Positions 14,162 through 44,164 of a DNA stretch of 47,462 bases are shown piece by piece. The DNA is taken from positions 337,230-384,691 of the forward strand of contig JBMORT010000002.1 of the NCBI GenBank assembly GCA_049319825.1. Reading direction: 5' to 3'. This DNA comes from Patescibacteria group bacterium (lineage in GTDB: Bacteria; Patescibacteriota; Patescibacteriia; UBA11705; DATKZF01). The translations under genes and the position numbers were made by a program. Position 1 is the first letter of the stretch, and every line of letters starts with the position of its first letter. The notes beneath the pieces were generated by a model. It saw only the letters and a program-made list of their open reading frames with translations, was not told where the DNA came from and ran no database searches.

Positions 14162-15697
14162 TTACGTTGTTTCGACAATGATGTTGAAAGTCGATCTGAT
14201 CAATTCCTCCCGCGTGAACTCGCGGCAGCAATAGCCGCAGACAGCGCGCGATGGATCCAGGCTGACAGTAAAGATCGGCTTGGCCTCGGCGAGATGAGAG
14301 GCGCATTTTTCGTTTGGACAAATCAGCGCGTCCGGCATGGTGGCGCCGGAAATTCTGGCTGTTTGCTTGTTGAAAAAACCGTCAACGACTTGATTGATTT
14401 TAATGCCGGGGGCGATGAATGTTGCCAATGTTTTCCCCACCGGATTCAGCAGCATCCCGTGCAGCACCACGATATCCTTTCGGCCTTGGATGCTGACTTC
14501 GTGGAAGGCGCCATCGCCGATGGCGCTCCCGGCCTTGGAAATGACGTTGGCGACAGCATGTCCCAACCCCGGAGGGATATGATCGATGATTGTGCCGCGG
14601 CTTCTGATCGGCTGAAAATAATCATCGGCTTTGCCGGCTTCTCTTCTGTTTTTTAGCCGGTCTTCATTGGGCATTTCCGTGTGCGTTTCCGTCCGGCAAG
14701 GGATTATCGGTGCGAATTGGGTGGCCTCGCTAAGACGCAGGTAGCTCCAGCGATGCGCGGCCATGCGCAGGGCGATGCCGATGGTCATCTGCTCCCACAT
14801 GGCGTTTCGGGGATCATTGGAAATATCGATGGCGATCTCCGGGCCTCTGGGCCCGGGATGCATGACAATGACTTTCTCACCGAACAATTCTTGCAGTTCT
14901 TTTCTTCCAAGCACATAGCGGTTGAGTACTCTGGCCAGTTCCATGGGATCGGTGTATCGTTCTCTTTGAATTCTGGTGCCCATGATAATGTCGCATTTTC
15001 CGACTGTCCGGAATGAATCGTGTTCTTCGATGTGCAAGCCTTGCCGGCGAAATTCAGGAATTCCGGTGCCCGGCGCGCAAACGGTGACAATGCGAATATC
15101 ACCATAACGGGCGTTGAGCATTCGCAGAATATCGAGATCGGAATTGAGTGTGCGTGAATAGCGCAGGTCACCGAACATCAGTACGGAGAAATCATGCGTT
15201 CGTCCCAGTCGGTGTTTGATTGTCGCCAGATTCAGCAGGGCCTGAGTCGGATGGCGGTTGGCGCCGTCTCCGGCGTTATGCACGGCGCAGCGGAATCCCG
15301 AGCGAGCCAGAATTTCCATGGCGAACTTGGCGCTGCCTTCGAATTCCGTTCTGAAAACGAAAATGTCAGACAGCTGAGTGCCGGCATGGGTGCGGATCGA
15401 GTCTGCCAGCGATTCGCTTTTTGCCAGCGACAACGCGTCCGCCAGCGGCAGAATCACCACATTGAAGCCGGTCAATTTCGCGGCCAAAGCATTGGTGTAC
15501 ACTGTTCTGCTCGATGGCTCTTTTGACATAATCAGCACGGTCGGCAGACTATCCGCGGGAAATTCCAGCCGCAACGGGTGCCCTGGTGGCGGACGTTTTT
15601 TTTCCACCGCGAATTTATACAATTCCAGGGCATGGTCAATGGCCATTTCCAAAATTTCATCAAGTGAAAAATCGTTGATAGTAATTATGTGTTTCAT
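14162..15697 (-). CDS. pyrB: Fused aspartate carbamoyltransferase: catalytic (PyrB) plus regulatory (PyrI) chain
   Basis: 511 aa. The N-terminal ~310 aa carry ATCase motifs: SSRT (the STRTR position), HPTQ, RIQRERY, HPGPRGPE. The C-terminal ~150 aa match PyrI: RGTIIDHIP, GRKDIVVL, and the zinc cluster CPNEKCASH...CGYCCREF. Confidence 0.85.
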   Translation of the reverse strand: MKHIITINDFSLDEILEMAIDHALELYKFAVEKKRPPPGHPLRLEFPADSLPTVLIMSKEPSSRTVYTNALAAKLTGFNVVILPLADALSLAKSESLADSIRTHAGTQLSDIFVFRTEFEGSAKFAMEILARSGFRCAVHNAGDGANRHPTQALLNLATIKHRLGRTHDFSVLMFGDLRYSRTLNSDLDILRMLNARYGDIRIVTVCAPGTGIPEFRRQGLHIEEHDSFRTVGKCDIIMGTRIQRERYTDPMELARVLNRYVLGRKELQELFGEKVIVMHPGPRGPEIAIDISNDPRNAMWEQMTIGIALRMAAHRWSYLRLSEATQFAPIIPCRTETHTEMPNEDRLKNRREAGKADDYFQPIRSRGTIIDHIPPGLGHAVANVISKAGSAIGDGAFHEVSIQGRKDIVVLHGMLLNPVGKTLATFIAPGIKINQVVDGFFNKQTARISGATMPDALICPNEKCASHLAEAKPIFTVSLDPSRAVCGYCCREFTREELIRSTFNIIVETT

Positions 15698-23815: not shown

Positions 23816-26800
23816 ATGGATCAAAAAAATATGGAGTCCCGGCCGGCGCGGCCGGACGAAGAGCTGAGTGAGCTGCCCGCAGAGCCGGAAAAGCTGGCTC
23901 AGGAATTGGCAATGTCGGCAGAAACCGAAAAAAAAGAGGCTGTTGGATTTTTCCGCGGTCTTTTCGGCCGAGGTAAGTGGCAAAAAAAAGAACAAAGTCT
24001 GGCCAAACTGGAGGCGGCGCAGCAGGCAGTGGAGCAGAAAGTGCAGGAATTCAAACAAAAAACGGAAGAGATTTTATCAGCTGATCAGCAGGAAAAAAAA
24101 GGATTGCTTGATACTGCCAGAGAAAAATTCGTTGAGGCAGCGAGAAAATTAAAAAAATATGAAGGACTGCGCGGCTGTTTGCGGCGCTTGCGCGATCGGT
24201 TTGAAGCGGCGGACGCCATTAACGCGCATCAGGAGGCGAAACATAATTATATCGAATCCAGGGCGGAATTTGTCGGCGACAGCGTTGAAAAACATCTTAA
24301 AGAAAGCATGGCTTTGGCCGATAAGCAGGCAGAAGCGTTCGCGGCCGACCGTGGTTGGGGGCGTAAATTTTATGACAGCTATAAAAAGCTCGGTGAGTGG
24401 AATTTGACCAAGCTGGGCTGGGAACCGAAAGGCAGAATCGGCCGGCTGGTGGCCCGAGCGGCCAGCGTCCGAACGGCGATCAGCCTTGGCTTGCTAGCCG
24501 GTGGCTCGGTTTTGGCGGCGACCGGCGCGGCCGCGGCCGCGGGAGGAATTTTCGTGGCGCGCCGAGCGCTGGGCGGTTTGGGCGCCGGCGTCGGTTCATA
24601 TGATTTGATGAAAATGGTGGCCGATCGCAAATTAAGCGGGGAAGTCAATGATGATAAGCTAAAGCAGATGCCGGTCGATGAGATTAGAAAAAGACTTGAA
24701 TATTTTGAGGCGGCGGCTCCGCTCAGCGGTAAAAAACCTTCGGAAATAGATTTTTATAATAAGCTGGCAATCGAATATTCGGCTCGGATAAAAAGTGATT
24801 TGTCCGCCGCCGAGCATTCTTTGAAAACAGAGGCGGCCGAACCGCCGACCAGTTTTGAAAACATAAAAGATCAAGAGTTTGATAGACAAAAAAATCAAAT
24901 CAATTCGCTCTTGGTTAGAGAATTGAAACTGATGACCGCCGGGCTGGCGCAGAAAGAGCGCGCCCAGAAAGCACAGGGAGCGGCAAAGGCAGAAGCCGAG
25001 CGTTCAATCGAATGGTTGGCTCAGGAAATGGATAAACTCGGTGAGGAAATGATCGGCCATGGTCGGGCGGCTGAAATGATCATTGAATTTTTGGAAAAAA
25101 ATAATTTGGTTGACAATCCGGCCTTGGCTTTGCGCCAGCAAGGCAAGGATTTCGCGCTTAAACCCGAATACGATATGGATTTGGAGGAATATCTCAAAGC
25201 CGACAATGATTTTCAAAAGATGATTGAATCGGCGGCCATGGAGACTTTTCGGGAAGTCGCCGCCGCCGCCGACGCCGAGCGGAAACGGGCGGCCGAGAGA
25301 GCGATGTTGATCCAAACAAAATTATCTCAGCTGGCGGCGGAGAGCTTAAATGATATTGATCGCCGGCGTAAAAAATCAAAAAAGAATAATCGTTTGATGA
25401 AGGGCATCGCCGCCGGCGTGGGGGTCTTTGTCGGATCTGGCGGCACCAGCTGGTTGATGAAGAATATGTTTTTTGAAGGCGAGGCTCATGCCAGTGAAAT
25501 CAACGGAGAAAACATGGTGTATAATCCGGATTATCCGGCTGAAGCGCTGCCGCAGTTTCCATTGGCCGAGGCTGTTGACGCCCCGAAAATTCCGGTCGAG
25601 ACGGGTACGGTGGTTTATGAAATTCCGGCCGAGCAGCTGCCGATCGTGGCCGCGCCGCCGGCTGATTCAATAGCGGTGCCGGCATTGGAAATTAAATCCG
25701 GAGGGGCTGAGGCGCTGGCTGTTGATTTCGAGGCGCCGGAAATGGTGATCACTCCGCTCAAAGCCGTGACCGCGCTAAAGCCGGGCGAAGGCATTCTTAG
25801 CGGCATTAATCGAATTTTAAATCAAGATCCTGATTTGAAAAATATTTTTAATACTCCGGCTGAATTGCGGCGATGGAAGATCGGCCAGCTGAAAAATTTG
25901 GGATTTGAAATGAAAGGATCACGTTGGATTTCTCCCGTCACCGTGCACGAGGGCGATCAGGTGGAGATTATCAAGCGACCGGATGGTTCGCTCGATCTTC
26001 AAGTAACAGCCAAGCCGGCCGCGGCGCTGTCGCCGGAAGAATATCTGGCCAAACAGCGAATCCGCGAATTCATGCCGCCCAGAAAGTTAAAATTAACCGA
26101 ACCGGAGAAATTAAAAGCGCTGCTTAACCGTCAGCTGGAATGGGCGTTTTCGGAAAAAGGGCCGATGACGCTCGATGAAGAAATGACGCGGCAGCTGGAA
26201 TGGGCATTTTCTGAAAAAGGACCGAAGACTTTTAACGAGGAAATGAGAGGCCAACTAGAGCGCTGGTTCACCGGCCCCGAGTCAAAAACGGTGCCGGACC
26301 CGGGATTGGATAGTAAAATCGCCGCGGCTAAGCCGGCCGGCAAAGTGGCCGCTGAATCATTGCTCGATCAGCCAATACCGGACAAACCGGCGGCCGAGGA
26401 GCTGTTAAGCAAAAAAATTCCATCAAAACCGAGTACCGCCATGGAAACGGTGATCAAGCCAAAATCAGTGGCGGCCGCGGCGCCAGAAGCGGTCGGTCGT
26501 CCGTCCGGAAATGCTGGACCGATTTTCGAGACAGTGCCCGGCGTTTATGGATTTAATTCCGAGAGCATTGCCGGCGGTCGCATAATCGTCAAGCCGCTGA
26601 CCGGCGGCGGCTATCAAGCTTTTGTCGAAGGGCAGGTCAAGCTCAGCCAGGCGGATTTGGTAAAAAAGGGCGTCTTAGCCAAGGATTTTCAGGCTAAACT
26701 ATTAGAAAGATATCAGGATCGGGCACCGCTGATCAGGCAGGCGGTGGAGGGAGTGGCGAGACGGATATATTTGCATGAGGAAGCTTTGCGTATTGCTAAG

Positions 26801-26896
26801 GCACAAGGCAATAAAGAGCTGGTTAATGCATTAAAAAAGACGGTGCAAGCGCTCCGATTGGCCAACTATCGCCGTTTTGGCAATCTTTTTGCTTGA
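23816..26896 (+). CDS. Large coiled-coil membrane protein (1026 aa), hypothetical
   Basis: Long heptad-like charged segments and two Gly/Ala-rich hydrophobic segments. Pro/Ala-rich linker regions. Confidence 0.85.
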   Translation: MDQKNMESRPARPDEELSELPAEPEKLAQELAMSAETEKKEAVGFFRGLFGRGKWQKKEQSLAKLEAAQQAVEQKVQEFKQKTEEILSADQQEKKGLLDTAREKFVEAARKLKKYEGLRGCLRRLRDRFEAADAINAHQEAKHNYIESRAEFVGDSVEKHLKESMALADKQAEAFAADRGWGRKFYDSYKKLGEWNLTKLGWEPKGRIGRLVARAASVRTAISLGLLAGGSVLAATGAAAAAGGIFVARRALGGLGAGVGSYDLMKMVADRKLSGEVNDDKLKQMPVDEIRKRLEYFEAAAPLSGKKPSEIDFYNKLAIEYSARIKSDLSAAEHSLKTEAAEPPTSFENIKDQEFDRQKNQINSLLVRELKLMTAGLAQKERAQKAQGAAKAEAERSIEWLAQEMDKLGEEMIGHGRAAEMIIEFLEKNNLVDNPALALRQQGKDFALKPEYDMDLEEYLKADNDFQKMIESAAMETFREVAAAADAERKRAAERAMLIQTKLSQLAAESLNDIDRRRKKSKKNNRLMKGIAAGVGVFVGSGGTSWLMKNMFFEGEAHASEINGENMVYNPDYPAEALPQFPLAEAVDAPKIPVETGTVVYEIPAEQLPIVAAPPADSIAVPALEIKSGGAEALAVDFEAPEMVITPLKAVTALKPGEGILSGINRILNQDPDLKNIFNTPAELRRWKIGQLKNLGFEMKGSRWISPVTVHEGDQVEIIKRPDGSLDLQVTAKPAAALSPEEYLAKQRIREFMPPRKLKLTEPEKLKALLNRQLEWAFSEKGPMTLDEEMTRQLEWAFSEKGPKTFNEEMRGQLERWFTGPESKTVPDPGLDSKIAAAKPAGKVAAESLLDQPIPDKPAAEELLSKKIPSKPSTAMETVIKPKSVAAAAPEAVGRPSGNAGPIFETVPGVYGFNSESIAGGRIIVKPLTGGGYQAFVEGQVKLSQADLVKKGVLAKDFQAKLLERYQDRAPLIRQAVEGVARRIYLHEEALRIAKAQGNKELVNALKKTVQALRLANYRRFGNLFA
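26129..26272 (+). repeat. In-frame tandem 60-bp repeat (2.4 copies) inside the 1026-aa gene
   Basis: RQLEWAFSEKGPMTLDEEMT / RQLEWAFSEKGPKTFNEEMR / GQLERWFT. Confidence 0.8.
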
Positions 26897-29974: not shown

Positions 29975-30363
29975 TGGTGGAGATGGCGGGAATCGAACCC
30001 GCGTCTAGAGATTAAACCGCTGGCGTTTCTACGGAAAGTAGTTCGTTTATGATTGTTCGGCCCGTTCGGTATAAAACAAACAAAATCCGATCAGGCGATA
30101 GCCAGCATAATCTTGGTTGAAGCGTCTGGCAGCGATTCAACCCAGCTCGATAATGGCGCCTGCGTTGCCTATCGAGCATCGGCAGGCAAGCGGTCGCTGG
30201 ATATTAAGCAGCAACAGGAGCAAAAGCCAAAGCGAAAGCGCTTTTTACTTTTGCCAGTACATTATTCGCACTTATTTTGATTGTCAAAAAGTTTAATGAG
30301 CATTTTGACAGCTCATTTCCGCGCGCAAGCAGCTCGCCATCTCTATCGAAGCCGATCATCCCC
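29975..30363 (-). ncRNA. ssrA: tmRNA (SsrA)
   Basis: The 5' end is GGGGATGATCGGCTTCGATAG and the 3' end GCGGGTTCGATTCCCGCCATCTCCACCA. The acceptor stem has a G3:U70 pair. Internal tag frame GCG AAT AAT ... GCT GCT TAA = ANNVLAKVKSAFALAFAPVAA. Lies 61 nt downstream of smpB. Confidence 0.9.
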
Positions 30364-30424: not shown

Positions 30425-30877
30425 CTAATACTGCTTCATCGCTCTTTCTATCTGTCGTTTGGCCTCTCGTTCTTTGATCGTTTTTTTCTTTTCGTATTTT
30501 TTCTTTCCTTTGGCCACGCAGAATTCCAATTTGATGCGATTGTGCTTAGTATACACCCGAAGCGGTATTAATGTCAAGCCTTTTTGCTTTAAAAGTCCTA
30601 TTAATTTACTGATTTCTTTTTTATGCAAAAGCAGTTTTCTCGATGCTGTCGGATCATAGCTAGGTTGACTGCCAGCAGGTTTATATTTGGAAATATGCGC
30701 GTTAGTTAAGTACACCTCGGTTTGCGGGGTGTGCTTGATGGTGACGATTGAGCCTTTCAAATTGATCTGCCCGGCCTTGATTGATTTTACCTCCGGGCCG
30801 GTTAAAACCAAGCCGGCCTCGAATTTTTCGAGGATGTCGTAATCGAATTTCGCTTGTTTATTGATCACCGGTTTCAT
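30425..30877 (-). CDS. smpB: SsrA-binding protein SmpB
   Basis: 150 aa with the GLVLTGPEVKS, LLLHKKEI and basic C-terminal tail hallmarks. Confidence 0.95.
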   Translation of the reverse strand: MKPVINKQAKFDYDILEKFEAGLVLTGPEVKSIKAGQINLKGSIVTIKHTPQTEVYLTNAHISKYKPAGSQPSYDPTASRKLLLHKKEISKLIGLLKQKGLTLIPLRVYTKHNRIKLEFCVAKGKKKYEKKKTIKEREAKRQIERAMKQY

Positions 30878-30925
30878 AGATGATTTTTATGGTCGCGCTA
30901 TTATTATATGAATTTTTTTAAAAAT

Positions 30926-31168
30926 AAGAAAGGACAAGAGGGACAACAGGTAGGGAGGATAGAAGGAGGGGAGAAAAGCAGATGATGGGGTGGTAGGGAT
31001 TTGGAAAGGAAGGAAAAATGTGAAGGGTAGGTAGATGGGGGGGGCGACAAGCATGGGATTGGGGTTGGGGGGGGGTCACATTGTTTTCTTCTTTTTTTGC
31101 CTACTGGCTGCTTTCTTTTCCTTTTTTCCTCTGTATGATTTCTTTCCTGTTGTTTCTTGTCCTTGTTT
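30926..31168 (+). other. Strand-asymmetric hairpin of ~243 nt: purine-rich 5' arm, pyrimidine-rich 3' arm, G-run apex
   Basis: Base pairing of AAGGACAAGAGG..CAACAGG (30930-30950) with CCTGTTGTTTCTTGTCCTT (31146-31164). Further inward pairing works only with G:U pairs. TGTGA (31019-31023) pairs with TCACA (31076-31080) to close an apex containing G8, G3, G4 and G9 runs. Confidence 0.55.
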
Positions 31169-31195
31169 TCTTAATGTGCTTTAGAAGGGAAGGCT

Positions 31196-31352
31196 TGTGC
31201 CCAATTCCAACCTCGAAAGGCTAGAACTAGACAGCAATACATTTAAGTATTTACAAGCATTCGTCCCCCCTAAAGGGGGCTCTACGCCCCTCTTGGGCAC
31301 ATGTTCGGAATGAACTGGGTATTATAGTCTGTCCCGAATATTTGCCCAAGAG
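31196..31352. other. Three-segment mutually exclusive pairing element
   Basis: TGTGCCCAA (31196-31204) pairs with TTGGGCACA (31293-31301). CTCTTGGGCA (31290-31299) pairs with TGCCCAAGAG (31343-31352). CCCCC-taaa-GGGGG lies between, at 31266-31279. Confidence 0.45.
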
Positions 31353-31553
31353 AAACGCGGCCGATAAAATGAACAAACACTTTAATAGTGCATATTAGCA
31401 AAAAAGAATGATTTTGTCAAGTCGTTTTTTATTGTTGTTATTACTTTGTCTAATTTTAGGTAAAAAATGGTCAAAGCGATCACTAAAATTTTTGCGGCTT
31501 GGAAATAAAATAAAATGTGATGTATAATAAAAACGAGGAGGATTTTTTGATAT

Positions 31554-32606
31554 ATGAAACAATATAAAACTTTTAGCATTTCATTTATTTCCATCGTGAA
31601 ATTTTTTATCGTGCTGATCAGTCTTTATTTTTTGTATTTGATCAAAGATGTTCTGGCGCTGGTGTTTGTCTCTCTCATTTTCGCCTCCGCTATCGATTCA
31701 TGGGTCGATTGGCTTCAGAATAAAAAAGTACCGCGAGGCGTGAGCGTGCTGATCATTTATTTATTGGCGGTCGGAATAGTCGGCTCAGCCGTTGCTTTGG
31801 TGGTGCCGCCGATCATTTCGCAGTTGATGGATTTAACCAATAATTTCCCCACCTATTATGAAAGAGTCAGGGAGGTGTTTTCATTTTTTCAGGAATATTC
31901 GGCCAAATTCGGTTTTCAGCAAATTTCGCCGTCCAATTCATCTATCAGTTCAAATTTGGGTGGCGCCGCTTCCAGCATTATCTCGACTTTAGCCAATGTG
32001 TTTGGCGGCGTCGTTTCGTTTTTGGTCGTCTTGGTAATAACTTTTTACATGACCGTTGAGGAAAATTCCATTAAAAGAACAATTCGATCGCTGGTGCCCT
32101 CGAAATATCAAGAGTTGATTGTCATGCTGATCAATAAAATTCAGAATAAAATCGGCAAGTGGCTTAAGGGACAATTAGTACTGTGTTTGATAATCGGCGT
32201 GCTGACATACATTGGTTTGCTTATTCTCGGCGTCAAGTACGCTTTGGTGTTGGCGTTGATCGCCGCTCTCGGCGAATTTATACCGTACATTGGACCGGTA
32301 ATCAGCGCCATTCCGGCAATCTTTTTGGCTTTTTCCCAATCTCCGATCAAAGCGCTGTTCGTGCTGATTTTATTTGTCGTGATCCAGCAAGTGGAAAATC
32401 ATTTATTGGTGCCAAAAATTATGCAAAAAGCGGTCGGCTTGAATCCTGTTGTCAGCGTCATCGCGCTATTGATCGGCGCCAAAGTCGGTGGAGTGCTCGG
32501 CGCGGTTTTAGCCATTCCGGTGGCGACGGCGCTCAGCATAATCATCCGAGAGGTGTTTGAGGAAAAGGAATCATTAACCAAGGATAAAGAAGAGCCGGCC
32601 GGTTAA
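31554..32606 (+). CDS. AI-2E family transporter (PerM/YhhT-like)
   Basis: 350 aa, about 8 TM helices, conserved GEFIPYIGPVISAIPA block. Confidence 0.9.
   Translation: MKQYKTFSISFISIVKFFIVLISLYFLYLIKDVLALVFVSLIFASAIDSWVDWLQNKKVPRGVSVLIIYLLAVGIVGSAVALVVPPIISQLMDLTNNFPTYYERVREVFSFFQEYSAKFGFQQISPSNSSISSNLGGAASSIISTLANVFGGVVSFLVVLVITFYMTVEENSIKRTIRSLVPSKYQELIVMLINKIQNKIGKWLKGQLVLCLIIGVLTYIGLLILGVKYALVLALIAALGEFIPYIGPVISAIPAIFLAFSQSPIKALFVLILFVVIQQVENHLLVPKIMQKAVGLNPVVSVIALLIGAKVGGVLGAVLAIPVATALSIIIREVFEEKESLTKDKEEPAG

Positions 32607-41254: not shown

Positions 41255-44164
<2,910 letters not shown>

Follow-up and report, generated by a model that had tools for sequence, protein, structure and literature searches.

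Intrinsic terminators are G+C-rich stems of 5-14 bp with loops of 3-8 nt, whose base leads directly into a U-run on the transcribed strand and which close one transcription unit shortly ahead of the promoter of the next; in bidirectional intrinsic terminators an A-run lies on the other side, so that both strands read a stem and a U-rich tail. Rho-dependent terminators use rut sites ('C>G bubbles'), at least 70-80 nt of C-rich, G-poor and normally unstructured RNA, untranslated and followed by a pause-like stem. Leader attenuators, among them riboswitches, T-boxes and the L20 leader (RF00558) before infC-rpmI-rplT, place a promoter, a folded domain and a terminator-like hairpin ahead of translation-related genes, while MITEs and palindromic repeats (ERIC, Correia, RUP) are units of about 200 nt with terminal inverted repeats and AT-rich flanks that form a long hairpin when transcribed. 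To our knowledge, almost nothing has been described on non-coding RNA or transcription signals in Patescibacteria (Candidate Phyla Radiation), and a literature search on smpB-linked RNAs, or on Rho in Patescibacteria, found nothing relevant.

The window analysed here is a stretch of 47,462 nt from a Patescibacteria group bacterium, in which the spacer between smpB and an AI-2E-type transporter gene houses a long hairpin (Table 1). The spacer measures 676 nt, as given in a preliminary description of this DNA. On the smpB side lies the gene cluster smpB-ssrA-infC-rpmI-rplT, with infC, rpmI and rplT beyond the tmRNA, whose tag was read by ARAGORN as ANNVLAKVKSAFALAFAPVAA; the nearest SmpB sequences are from MAGs of Patescibacteria (Candidate Phyla Radiation). 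Other gaps in the window that measure 0.9-1.1 kb contain short ORFs only. On the smpB strand, which is the minus strand of the window, the parts of the spacer follow an order common to 8/8 complete spacers: promoter, structured domain, hairpin, U-run, smpB -10. Our preferred reading, put forward tentatively, is that the hairpin forms the end of a non-coding unit on this strand that has not been described before: a large stem-loop, evolving fast, that acts as terminator and insulator.

Table 1 Features of the spacer between smpB and the transporter gene and of its neighbours (window positions)
Feature	Position	Strand	Basis or remark
tmRNA	29975-30363		After smpB; Rfam, 129.5 bits
smpB	30425-30877	-	
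smpB -10, TATAAT(A)	30902-30908	-	Symmetric with TATTAT on the plus strand
U-run UCUUAUUUUU (complement of 30920-30929), then A-run	30913-30929	-	Terminator-like tail after the stem
Hairpin: purine-rich arm, G-rich apex, pyrimidine-rich arm	30926-31168		Folding; homologs at the same place
Base stem, left strand AAGGACAAGA	30930-30939		GGACA invariant in 10 homologs; neighbouring pairs covary
Inner apical stem-loop, stem TGTGA/TCACA	31019-31080		TGTGA (31019-31023) pairs with TCACA (31076-31080), closing the G-rich apex; pairing kept across homologs, sequence varies
Apical G-runs	31037-31075		G8 at 31037, GGG at 31055, GGGG at 31061, G9 at 31067
Conserved loop motif GACAAGCATGGGA	31046-31058		Near-invariant in homologs
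Base stem, right strand TCTTGTCCTT	31155-31164		Pairs with AAGGACAAGA
Structured RNA domain, about 185 nt	31172-31355	-	Covariation, alignment A4
3' GCACA	31175-31179	-	Domain structure
P4	31180-31274	-	Domain structure; encloses P5 at 31200-31231
P3	31277-31289	-	Domain structure
P2, long hairpin	31290-31352	-	Domain structure
5' leader motif UGUUC	31371-31375	-	Invariant in alignment A3
Promoter P1: TTGACA, 17-nt spacer ending TGC, TAATAT (extended -10)	31392-31420	-	Scan 10/12, with TG
AI-2E-type transporter gene	31554-32606	+	

The arms of the hairpin are complementary from the base inward, as first described. Both the basal AAGGACAAGA/TCTTGTCCTT pairing and the TGTGA/TCACA pairing were recovered; the hairpin is real and non-random, its inverted repeat exceeding chance. 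The base stem comprises 7-8 bp, including 3-4 G-C pairs. With 4 C in 93 nt and 86% purine, the left arm (30926-31018) is as poor in C as the preliminary description had it, while its account of the right arm (31081-31168) as almost free of purines somewhat overstated the case, since 3 A and 11 G make up 14 purines in 88 nt (16%). Read as minus-strand RNA, the 243 nt contain 85 C and 28 G, an overall C/G of 3.0. In 78-nt windows the G/C skew reaches a maximum of 20, the most extreme value of the 47-kb window, and all those with G/C of at least 5 start at 30897-31013. No second copy of the hairpin was found within the window. A scan of the window with Rfam 15 passed only the tmRNA and tRNA, leaving the hairpin unmatched at gathering score or E ≤ 10, and seven homologous loci gave nothing at E ≤ 1, the weak matches being miRNA-like hairpin noise; the original impression that no known RNA family is involved was borne out. 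A plus-strand ORF from a conserved ATG, considered as a small hydrophobic or type I toxin-like protein, was rejected on finding that its frame is not kept: its length is 4-57 codons, and L087, L091 and L093 have a stop after 4-6 codons.

Looking for homologous spacers beside smpB/ssrA, a check suggested at the outset, recovered them in about ten ultra-small Patescibacteria, with compensatory changes: the homologous hairpin lies upstream of smpB in 8 complete and 3 partial spacers. The homologs comprise L001, L081, L087, L089/L090, L091, L092 and L093, with partial copies in L098, L099 and L100; L081 was the sole useful locus from a metagenome scan with an SmpB alignment (low-complexity peptide patterns chosen). 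SmpB of the hairpin-bearing loci is 73-80% identical to that of the window. Relatives with 62-67% SmpB identity lack the element; among them, those with the same gene order and 64-67% identity have spacers of only 98-208 nt. In L001 and L087 the far-side gene differs, is co-directional and has its own terminator; the element therefore belongs to smpB and not to the transporter gene. A replication origin, considered for the divergent genes, was dropped, the module travelling with smpB into this co-directional context.

Hairpin length varies from 186 to 255 nt over the homologs, and the interior is mostly unalignable across the family. At the base, AAGGACA/TGTCCTT is conserved: GGACA/TGTCC does not vary, the pairs after it covary (AG/CT, GT/AC, GA/TC), and GGATAAG/CTTATCC in L098 represents a compensatory C-G to U-A change. 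No two homologs share the sequence of the inner apical stem, yet its pairing is retained, and the apical loop carries the near-invariant GACAAGCATGGG, usually together with GGGTAAA. On the window plus strand, G exceeds C 2.4-4.4 fold in all homologs, and a run of three C is absent from every one of them. The skew has the same direction in 11/11 homologs; an inverton was rejected on this ground, the G-rich side always lying on the window plus strand. Three contigs from independent assemblies (L088, L099 and L100) end at or inside the hairpin, and the element therefore seems to break short-read assemblies.

On the smpB strand the module opens with promoter P1, whose layout is preserved with exact 17-nt spacing in 8/8 complete homologs and likewise in L001, the -10 reading TAATAT, TACTAT or TAAGAT. 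A structure built manually for the adjacent domain has two hairpins, one long and the other small (GGGGC/GCCCC), and a long stem that encloses a further hairpin with a tetraloop cap. Of its cells in alignment A4, 88.6% are paired, and 24 pairs are changed on both sides, compared with 11.2 ± 2.2 in column shuffles (0/500) and 5-11 in slid controls. On the smpB strand the helices contain 45 G.U against 11 A.C cells, and the domain RNA is therefore made from that strand. The domain has no match in Rfam; its covariance model (R1), run over 70 loci, recovered the 8 training loci only, and a degenerate domain pattern gave no match in viral contigs. A minus-strand ORF in the domain was rejected, being open in about half of the homologs and shifted in frame by 1-2 nt indels while the stems covary. 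With a consensus promoter and a covariation-supported fold without database match, the locus is a clean candidate RNA gene, and the hairpin appears to go with a candidate RNA family that is new and narrowly distributed. The AUGCUUG of the hairpin's apical motif recurs in one strand of the long stem of the domain, without covariation between the two; a pairing of this AUGCUUG with the 3' strand of P4, followed by eye, was rejected, as P4 covaries in L089, L091 and L092 and the apical motif is fixed. Because the motif does not covary with the domain stem, a protein or a trans-RNA is more likely to be its partner.

Two further elements surround P1. A palindromic box, GGCTAAWTTTAGC, lies about 25 nt upstream of the P1 -35, at 31447-31460 in the window, where it is degenerate, and also in L001, L087, L092 and L093; it may be an operator. 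The heptamer TTGTCAA (window 31414-31421) reads as a -35 on both strands. In module-less relatives (L094:1903-2000, L095:1793-2000) it provides the promoter of the transporter gene (TTGTCA-17-TATAAT) with its -35, and in carriers of the module it is P1, on the other strand, that uses this heptamer.

Beyond the hairpin, the smpB TATAAT is exact in 10/11 homologs, in most of them 17 nt after the stem/TTTCTT, and is symmetric (TATAATA on the minus, TATTATA on the plus strand) in 9/11. The smpB ATG follows 6-7 nt past this -10 in L001, L087, L089 and L093 and 15-230 nt past it in the other homologs, and no Shine-Dalgarno sequence of smpB was found in any homolog. Relatives without the module (L094, L096) likewise retain a -10 box 6 nt before the smpB ATG. 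Because even these relatives keep the -10 by the ATG, smpB has its own promoter, with an mRNA that is probably leaderless. Judged by its sequence layout, the module is a self-contained unit inserted upstream of smpB and, being self-contained, would need its own terminator.

Several observations concern smpB itself. Within its coding sequence, TTGACA-18-TATACT lies at window positions 30548-30577 (minus strand), about 185 nt upstream of the tmRNA. These hexamers are nucleotide-invariant in 11-12 of 12 homologs, synonymous sites included, and the neighbouring codons vary; they are probably an embedded tmRNA promoter. The smpB 5' UTR, where one exists, is marked on the mRNA strand by tandem repeats rich in C and U, namely (CUUCCAG)n in L081:520-611 and L099:1-133 and (CCUUCU)n in L100:150-273. 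In L098:250-479 it contains an insert, about 230 nt long, in which GGGCTTGACAGGGC forms inverted repeats, and around L091:1985-2000 a second CTTGTTGTCCTTTTT, the right base of the hairpin, stands between TATAAT and the smpB ATG and may be a rearrangement remnant.

Between the domain and the hairpin no earlier terminator-like site was found. On the smpB strand, the hairpin stem leads straight into a U-run, UUUCUUnUUUUU, in 11/11 homologs, with 7-9 U in the first 10 nt after UGUCC in every one of them; an A-run comes next. On the plus strand the tail is less uniform, with 4-9 U in 10 nt, and is poor in L001 and L087 (UUCUUAAAAA). A strong promoter facing the promoter of an essential gene needs a stop, and the hairpin with its U-run is the sole terminator-like feature; hence the terminator and insulator reading, to which the module's accompanying smpB while the far-side gene differs in L001 and L087 also adds. 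Under this reading, P1 would start an RNA of about 430-490 nt, the first part of which would fold into the multi-hairpin domain and the last 190-260 nt into the hairpin, with its base AAGGACA/UGUCCUU followed by the U-run on the minus strand. The hairpin would end the P1 RNA just before the smpB promoter, serving as terminator and insulator and as a 3' structural cap. We thus infer termination at the hairpin in the smpB direction.

The hairpin resembles intrinsic terminators in that its stem base leads directly into the U-run on the smpB strand and that its place, after the P1 unit and before the smpB -10, fits the end of a unit. Unlike them, it is 190-260 nt long with many internal loops, is rich in A/U and wobble pairs, was not called by a consensus terminator scan, and bears a conserved loop motif and an extreme strand skew, neither of which is necessary for termination. 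Also counting against the terminator reading, many positions of the arms are A.C on the minus strand, and the stem is weaker and its consensus fold poorer in pairs there than on the plus strand, as detailed below. The locus offers an unusual terminator-like stem that bears the most extreme strand skew of the region. As in bidirectional intrinsic terminators, an A-run lies on the other side of the stem, so that both strands read the stem with a U-rich tail. Near-symmetry of the -10 element is described as the cause of divergent transcription in bacteria (PMC10268837), and by analogy the symmetric smpB -10 would plausibly also send plus-strand transcripts into the hairpin. The same stem, made stronger on that strand by its G.U pairs and followed by a U-rich tail in most homologs, would stop these transcripts as well, and such a bidirectional terminator fits the data better than a one-strand model. 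If the stem does terminate both ways, it would illustrate the means by which genomes of great compactness shield a leaderless essential gene from a strong RNA promoter next to it.

For the interior of the hairpin, the composition constraint (C-rich, G-poor minus-strand RNA) and the loop motif would together make a landing site for a factor. Like a rut site, the minus-strand RNA is C-rich and G-poor over more than 150 nt, well beyond 70-80 nt, with C/G of 3 overall, up to 20 in 78-nt windows and 2.4-4.4 in the homologs; as in Rho-dependent terminators, it is not translated and leads up to a pause-like stem that has a U-run. Unlike the normally unstructured rut sites, the C-rich arm is partly paired with the A-rich arm. 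On this resemblance, Rho is one candidate, and Rho or another protein may land on the hairpin; none of the 10 large window proteins scanned was Rho. If the C-rich arm is such a landing site, it would offer a handle on termination factors in Patescibacteria.

The strand on which the hairpin acts bears on the first of the alternatives. The plus-strand RNA folds with -85.1 kcal/mol and the minus-strand RNA with -51.3 kcal/mol, at z -4.8 and z -6.2 against dinucleotide shuffles. Because a purine tract will pair promiscuously with a pyrimidine tract downstream of it, a local-composition null was used in which bases were shuffled inside 30-nt blocks, preserving the make-up of each arm. Against this null, the plus strand compares with -73.0 ± 4.7 kcal/mol (z -2.6), about 12 kcal/mol being register-specific, and the minus strand with -29.3 ± 4.4 kcal/mol (z -5.0), a gain of 22 kcal/mol. 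The absolute stability of the plus strand is thus mostly that of a G/A-rich tract followed by a U-rich tract, about 73 of its 85 kcal/mol surviving local-composition shuffling. Over nine homologs, the register-specific gain amounts to 8-23 kcal/mol on the plus and 12-23 kcal/mol on the minus strand (z -3.3 to -6.5 for the latter) and is equal or larger on the minus strand in 7/9. The minus-strand minimum free energies, -31 to -51 kcal/mol over the homologs, are low per nucleotide yet significantly below those of the shuffles, and the stem is 20-40 kcal/mol weaker on the minus than on the plus strand. Strand energy differences in hairpins made of a purine arm and a pyrimidine arm mostly reflect composition, and call for tests with shuffles that preserve local composition.

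Wobble pairs were counted after one arm had been aligned, under a strand-symmetric score, to the other in reverse complement. Among the transition mismatches, 169 are G.U on the plus strand and 22 are G.U on the minus strand, an asymmetry that recurs in all 9 homologs. In the subclade of the window, L092, L093 and L098, the consensus fold has 40 pairs and -27 kcal/mol on the plus strand compared with 19 pairs and -10 kcal/mol on the minus strand; the alignment contains, on the plus strand, 46 G.U vs 3 A.C and 72 vs 8 interchanges between Watson-Crick and G.U pairs. The wobble excess is real. The abundance of plus-strand G.U pairs had been pointed out in the preliminary description, which took the element for a plus-strand RNA. 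As we would put this alternative, the hairpin would be a dedicated structured RNA, either a stand-alone small RNA or antisense to the 3' end of the P1 RNA, whose long G.U-rich helix and G-rich apex would carry the function. A plausible start exists in the symmetric smpB -10, which is TATTAT on the plus strand in 9/11 homologs (for the principle, PMC10268837), and the U-rich tail follows the stem on this strand in most of them, though it is poor in L001 and L087. However, there is no conserved -35 on the plus strand, where the sole scan match (9/12) is in L001; the gain after local-composition shuffling is no better than on the minus strand; and the G-quadruplex motif of the apex is not conserved.

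The wobble excess may also follow from composition. G-richness covers segments that have no pairing partner, namely both apex flanks in L093 and the GT/GGGT repeats in L092, and for this reason the excess does not prove that a plus-strand RNA exists: the same pattern would arise if the minus-strand RNA were selected to be C-rich and G-poor, and the skew of G over C looks like the primary constraint and not a by-product of wobble pairing. The wobble signal of the hairpin points to the opposite strand from the G.U signal of the adjacent domain. The earlier view that the helix is far better on the plus strand stands for absolute energy, with an advantage that is mainly compositional, and both strands beat dinucleotide shuffles while most of the plus-strand energy persists under local-composition shuffling. 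The further step, that the G.U pairs fix the strand, was not upheld, given the minus-strand register gain and the skew of unpaired segments; all independent direction signals (P1, domain G.U and U-run) point to the smpB strand. We regard a dedicated plus-strand RNA as rather unlikely.

A broader proposal would join both strands: the spacer would encode a Patescibacteria non-coding RNA of a new class, physically linked to the genes for trans-translation, in which a structured 5' domain is combined with a hypervariable, skewed 3' hairpin, convergent sense and antisense RNAs share an asymmetric stem, and the C-rich loop CCCAUGCUUGUC recruits a factor coupling the RNA to smpB/tmRNA expression. We offer this as speculation that is more doubtful than not by a good measure.

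The P1 transcript might alternatively be a cis-regulatory leader of smpB, together with ssrA, infC, rpmI and rplT, in which the domain senses a protein or ligand and sets the hairpin as an attenuator, UGUUC competing with UGUCCUU for AAGGACA. The sequence of promoter, conserved domain, terminator-like hairpin and gene is that of classical attenuators, and the module always adjoins smpB. The leader motif UGUUC has two possible partners, GCACA and the AAGGACA at the base of the hairpin; RNAalifold predicts its pairing to GGACA, and all three partner sequences are invariant, as expected under a three-way constraint. This alternative pairing, however, shows no covariation. Unlike the genes behind known leaders, smpB is preceded, beyond the hairpin, by a conserved -10 of its own and is apparently leaderless in several homologs, and the tmRNA seems to own a promoter inside smpB. 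The leader would also have no Rfam match and a hairpin ten times larger than usual expression platforms, and relatives manage without the module. A leader function is decidedly unlikely on these grounds.

A neutral account, in which the base stem and flanks alone matter and the interior is tolerated low-complexity DNA driven by slippage, the skew being a functionless mutational or slippage artefact, draws on the hypervariable length and sequence of the interior. Runs of microsatellite type occur in the interior, in L092 as (GT)n(GGGT)n and in L093 as (GATGGCGGG)3; L001 and L087, which are close relatives, differ at the apex through a replacement; and assemblies break at the hairpin. Against such drift, the loop motif GACAAGCATGGG and GGGTAAA are conserved across homologs, the inner stem covaries, the arms keep a register-specific complementarity, and the direction of a skew that is unique in the 47-kb window is constant in 11/11 homologs. 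We consider this account improbable. A MITE or other mobile palindromic element was rejected: with its length, terminal inverted repeats and AT-rich flanks the hairpin is like one, but unlike one it is single-copy in the 47-kb window, is fixed at the same locus in all relatives, has diverged in place and shows no target duplication.

A DNA-level element by the smpB promoter (G-quadruplex, cruciform or H-DNA) modulating transcription or replication is very improbable: although the only canonical G-quadruplex motif of the 47-kb window (four runs of at least 3 G, loops of 1-7 nt) fits exactly at 31055-31075, within the stretch at 31037-31075 that the preliminary description called a textbook motif, the tract is polypurine/polypyrimidine and the smpB promoter has its -35 position right beside the inverted repeat, the motif is kept with loops ≤ 7 nt in only 3/8 homologs (5/8 with loops ≤ 12 nt; absent from L081, L087 and L091, and present in L001, a close relative of L087), unlike what is expected of a functional quadruplex, general G-richness alone being conserved; the arms, rich in G.T, would make a poor cruciform; and the H-DNA or triplex also envisaged there found no support, the tracts being 84-86% pure and the best mirror arm, at 13 nt, no longer than the 10-22 nt of local shuffles.

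Elsewhere in the window, a 969-aa protein at 41255-44164 (+) carries eight MopE-type metal-binding repeats, and a 1026-aa ORF at 23816-26896 (+) and three ORFs of 400-600 aa gave no Pfam match. A single 511-aa ORF at 14162-15697 (-) contains OTCace_N, OTCace, PyrI and PyrI_C domains, that is, aspartate carbamoyltransferase catalytic and regulatory-chain domains, and looks like a PyrB-PyrI fusion.
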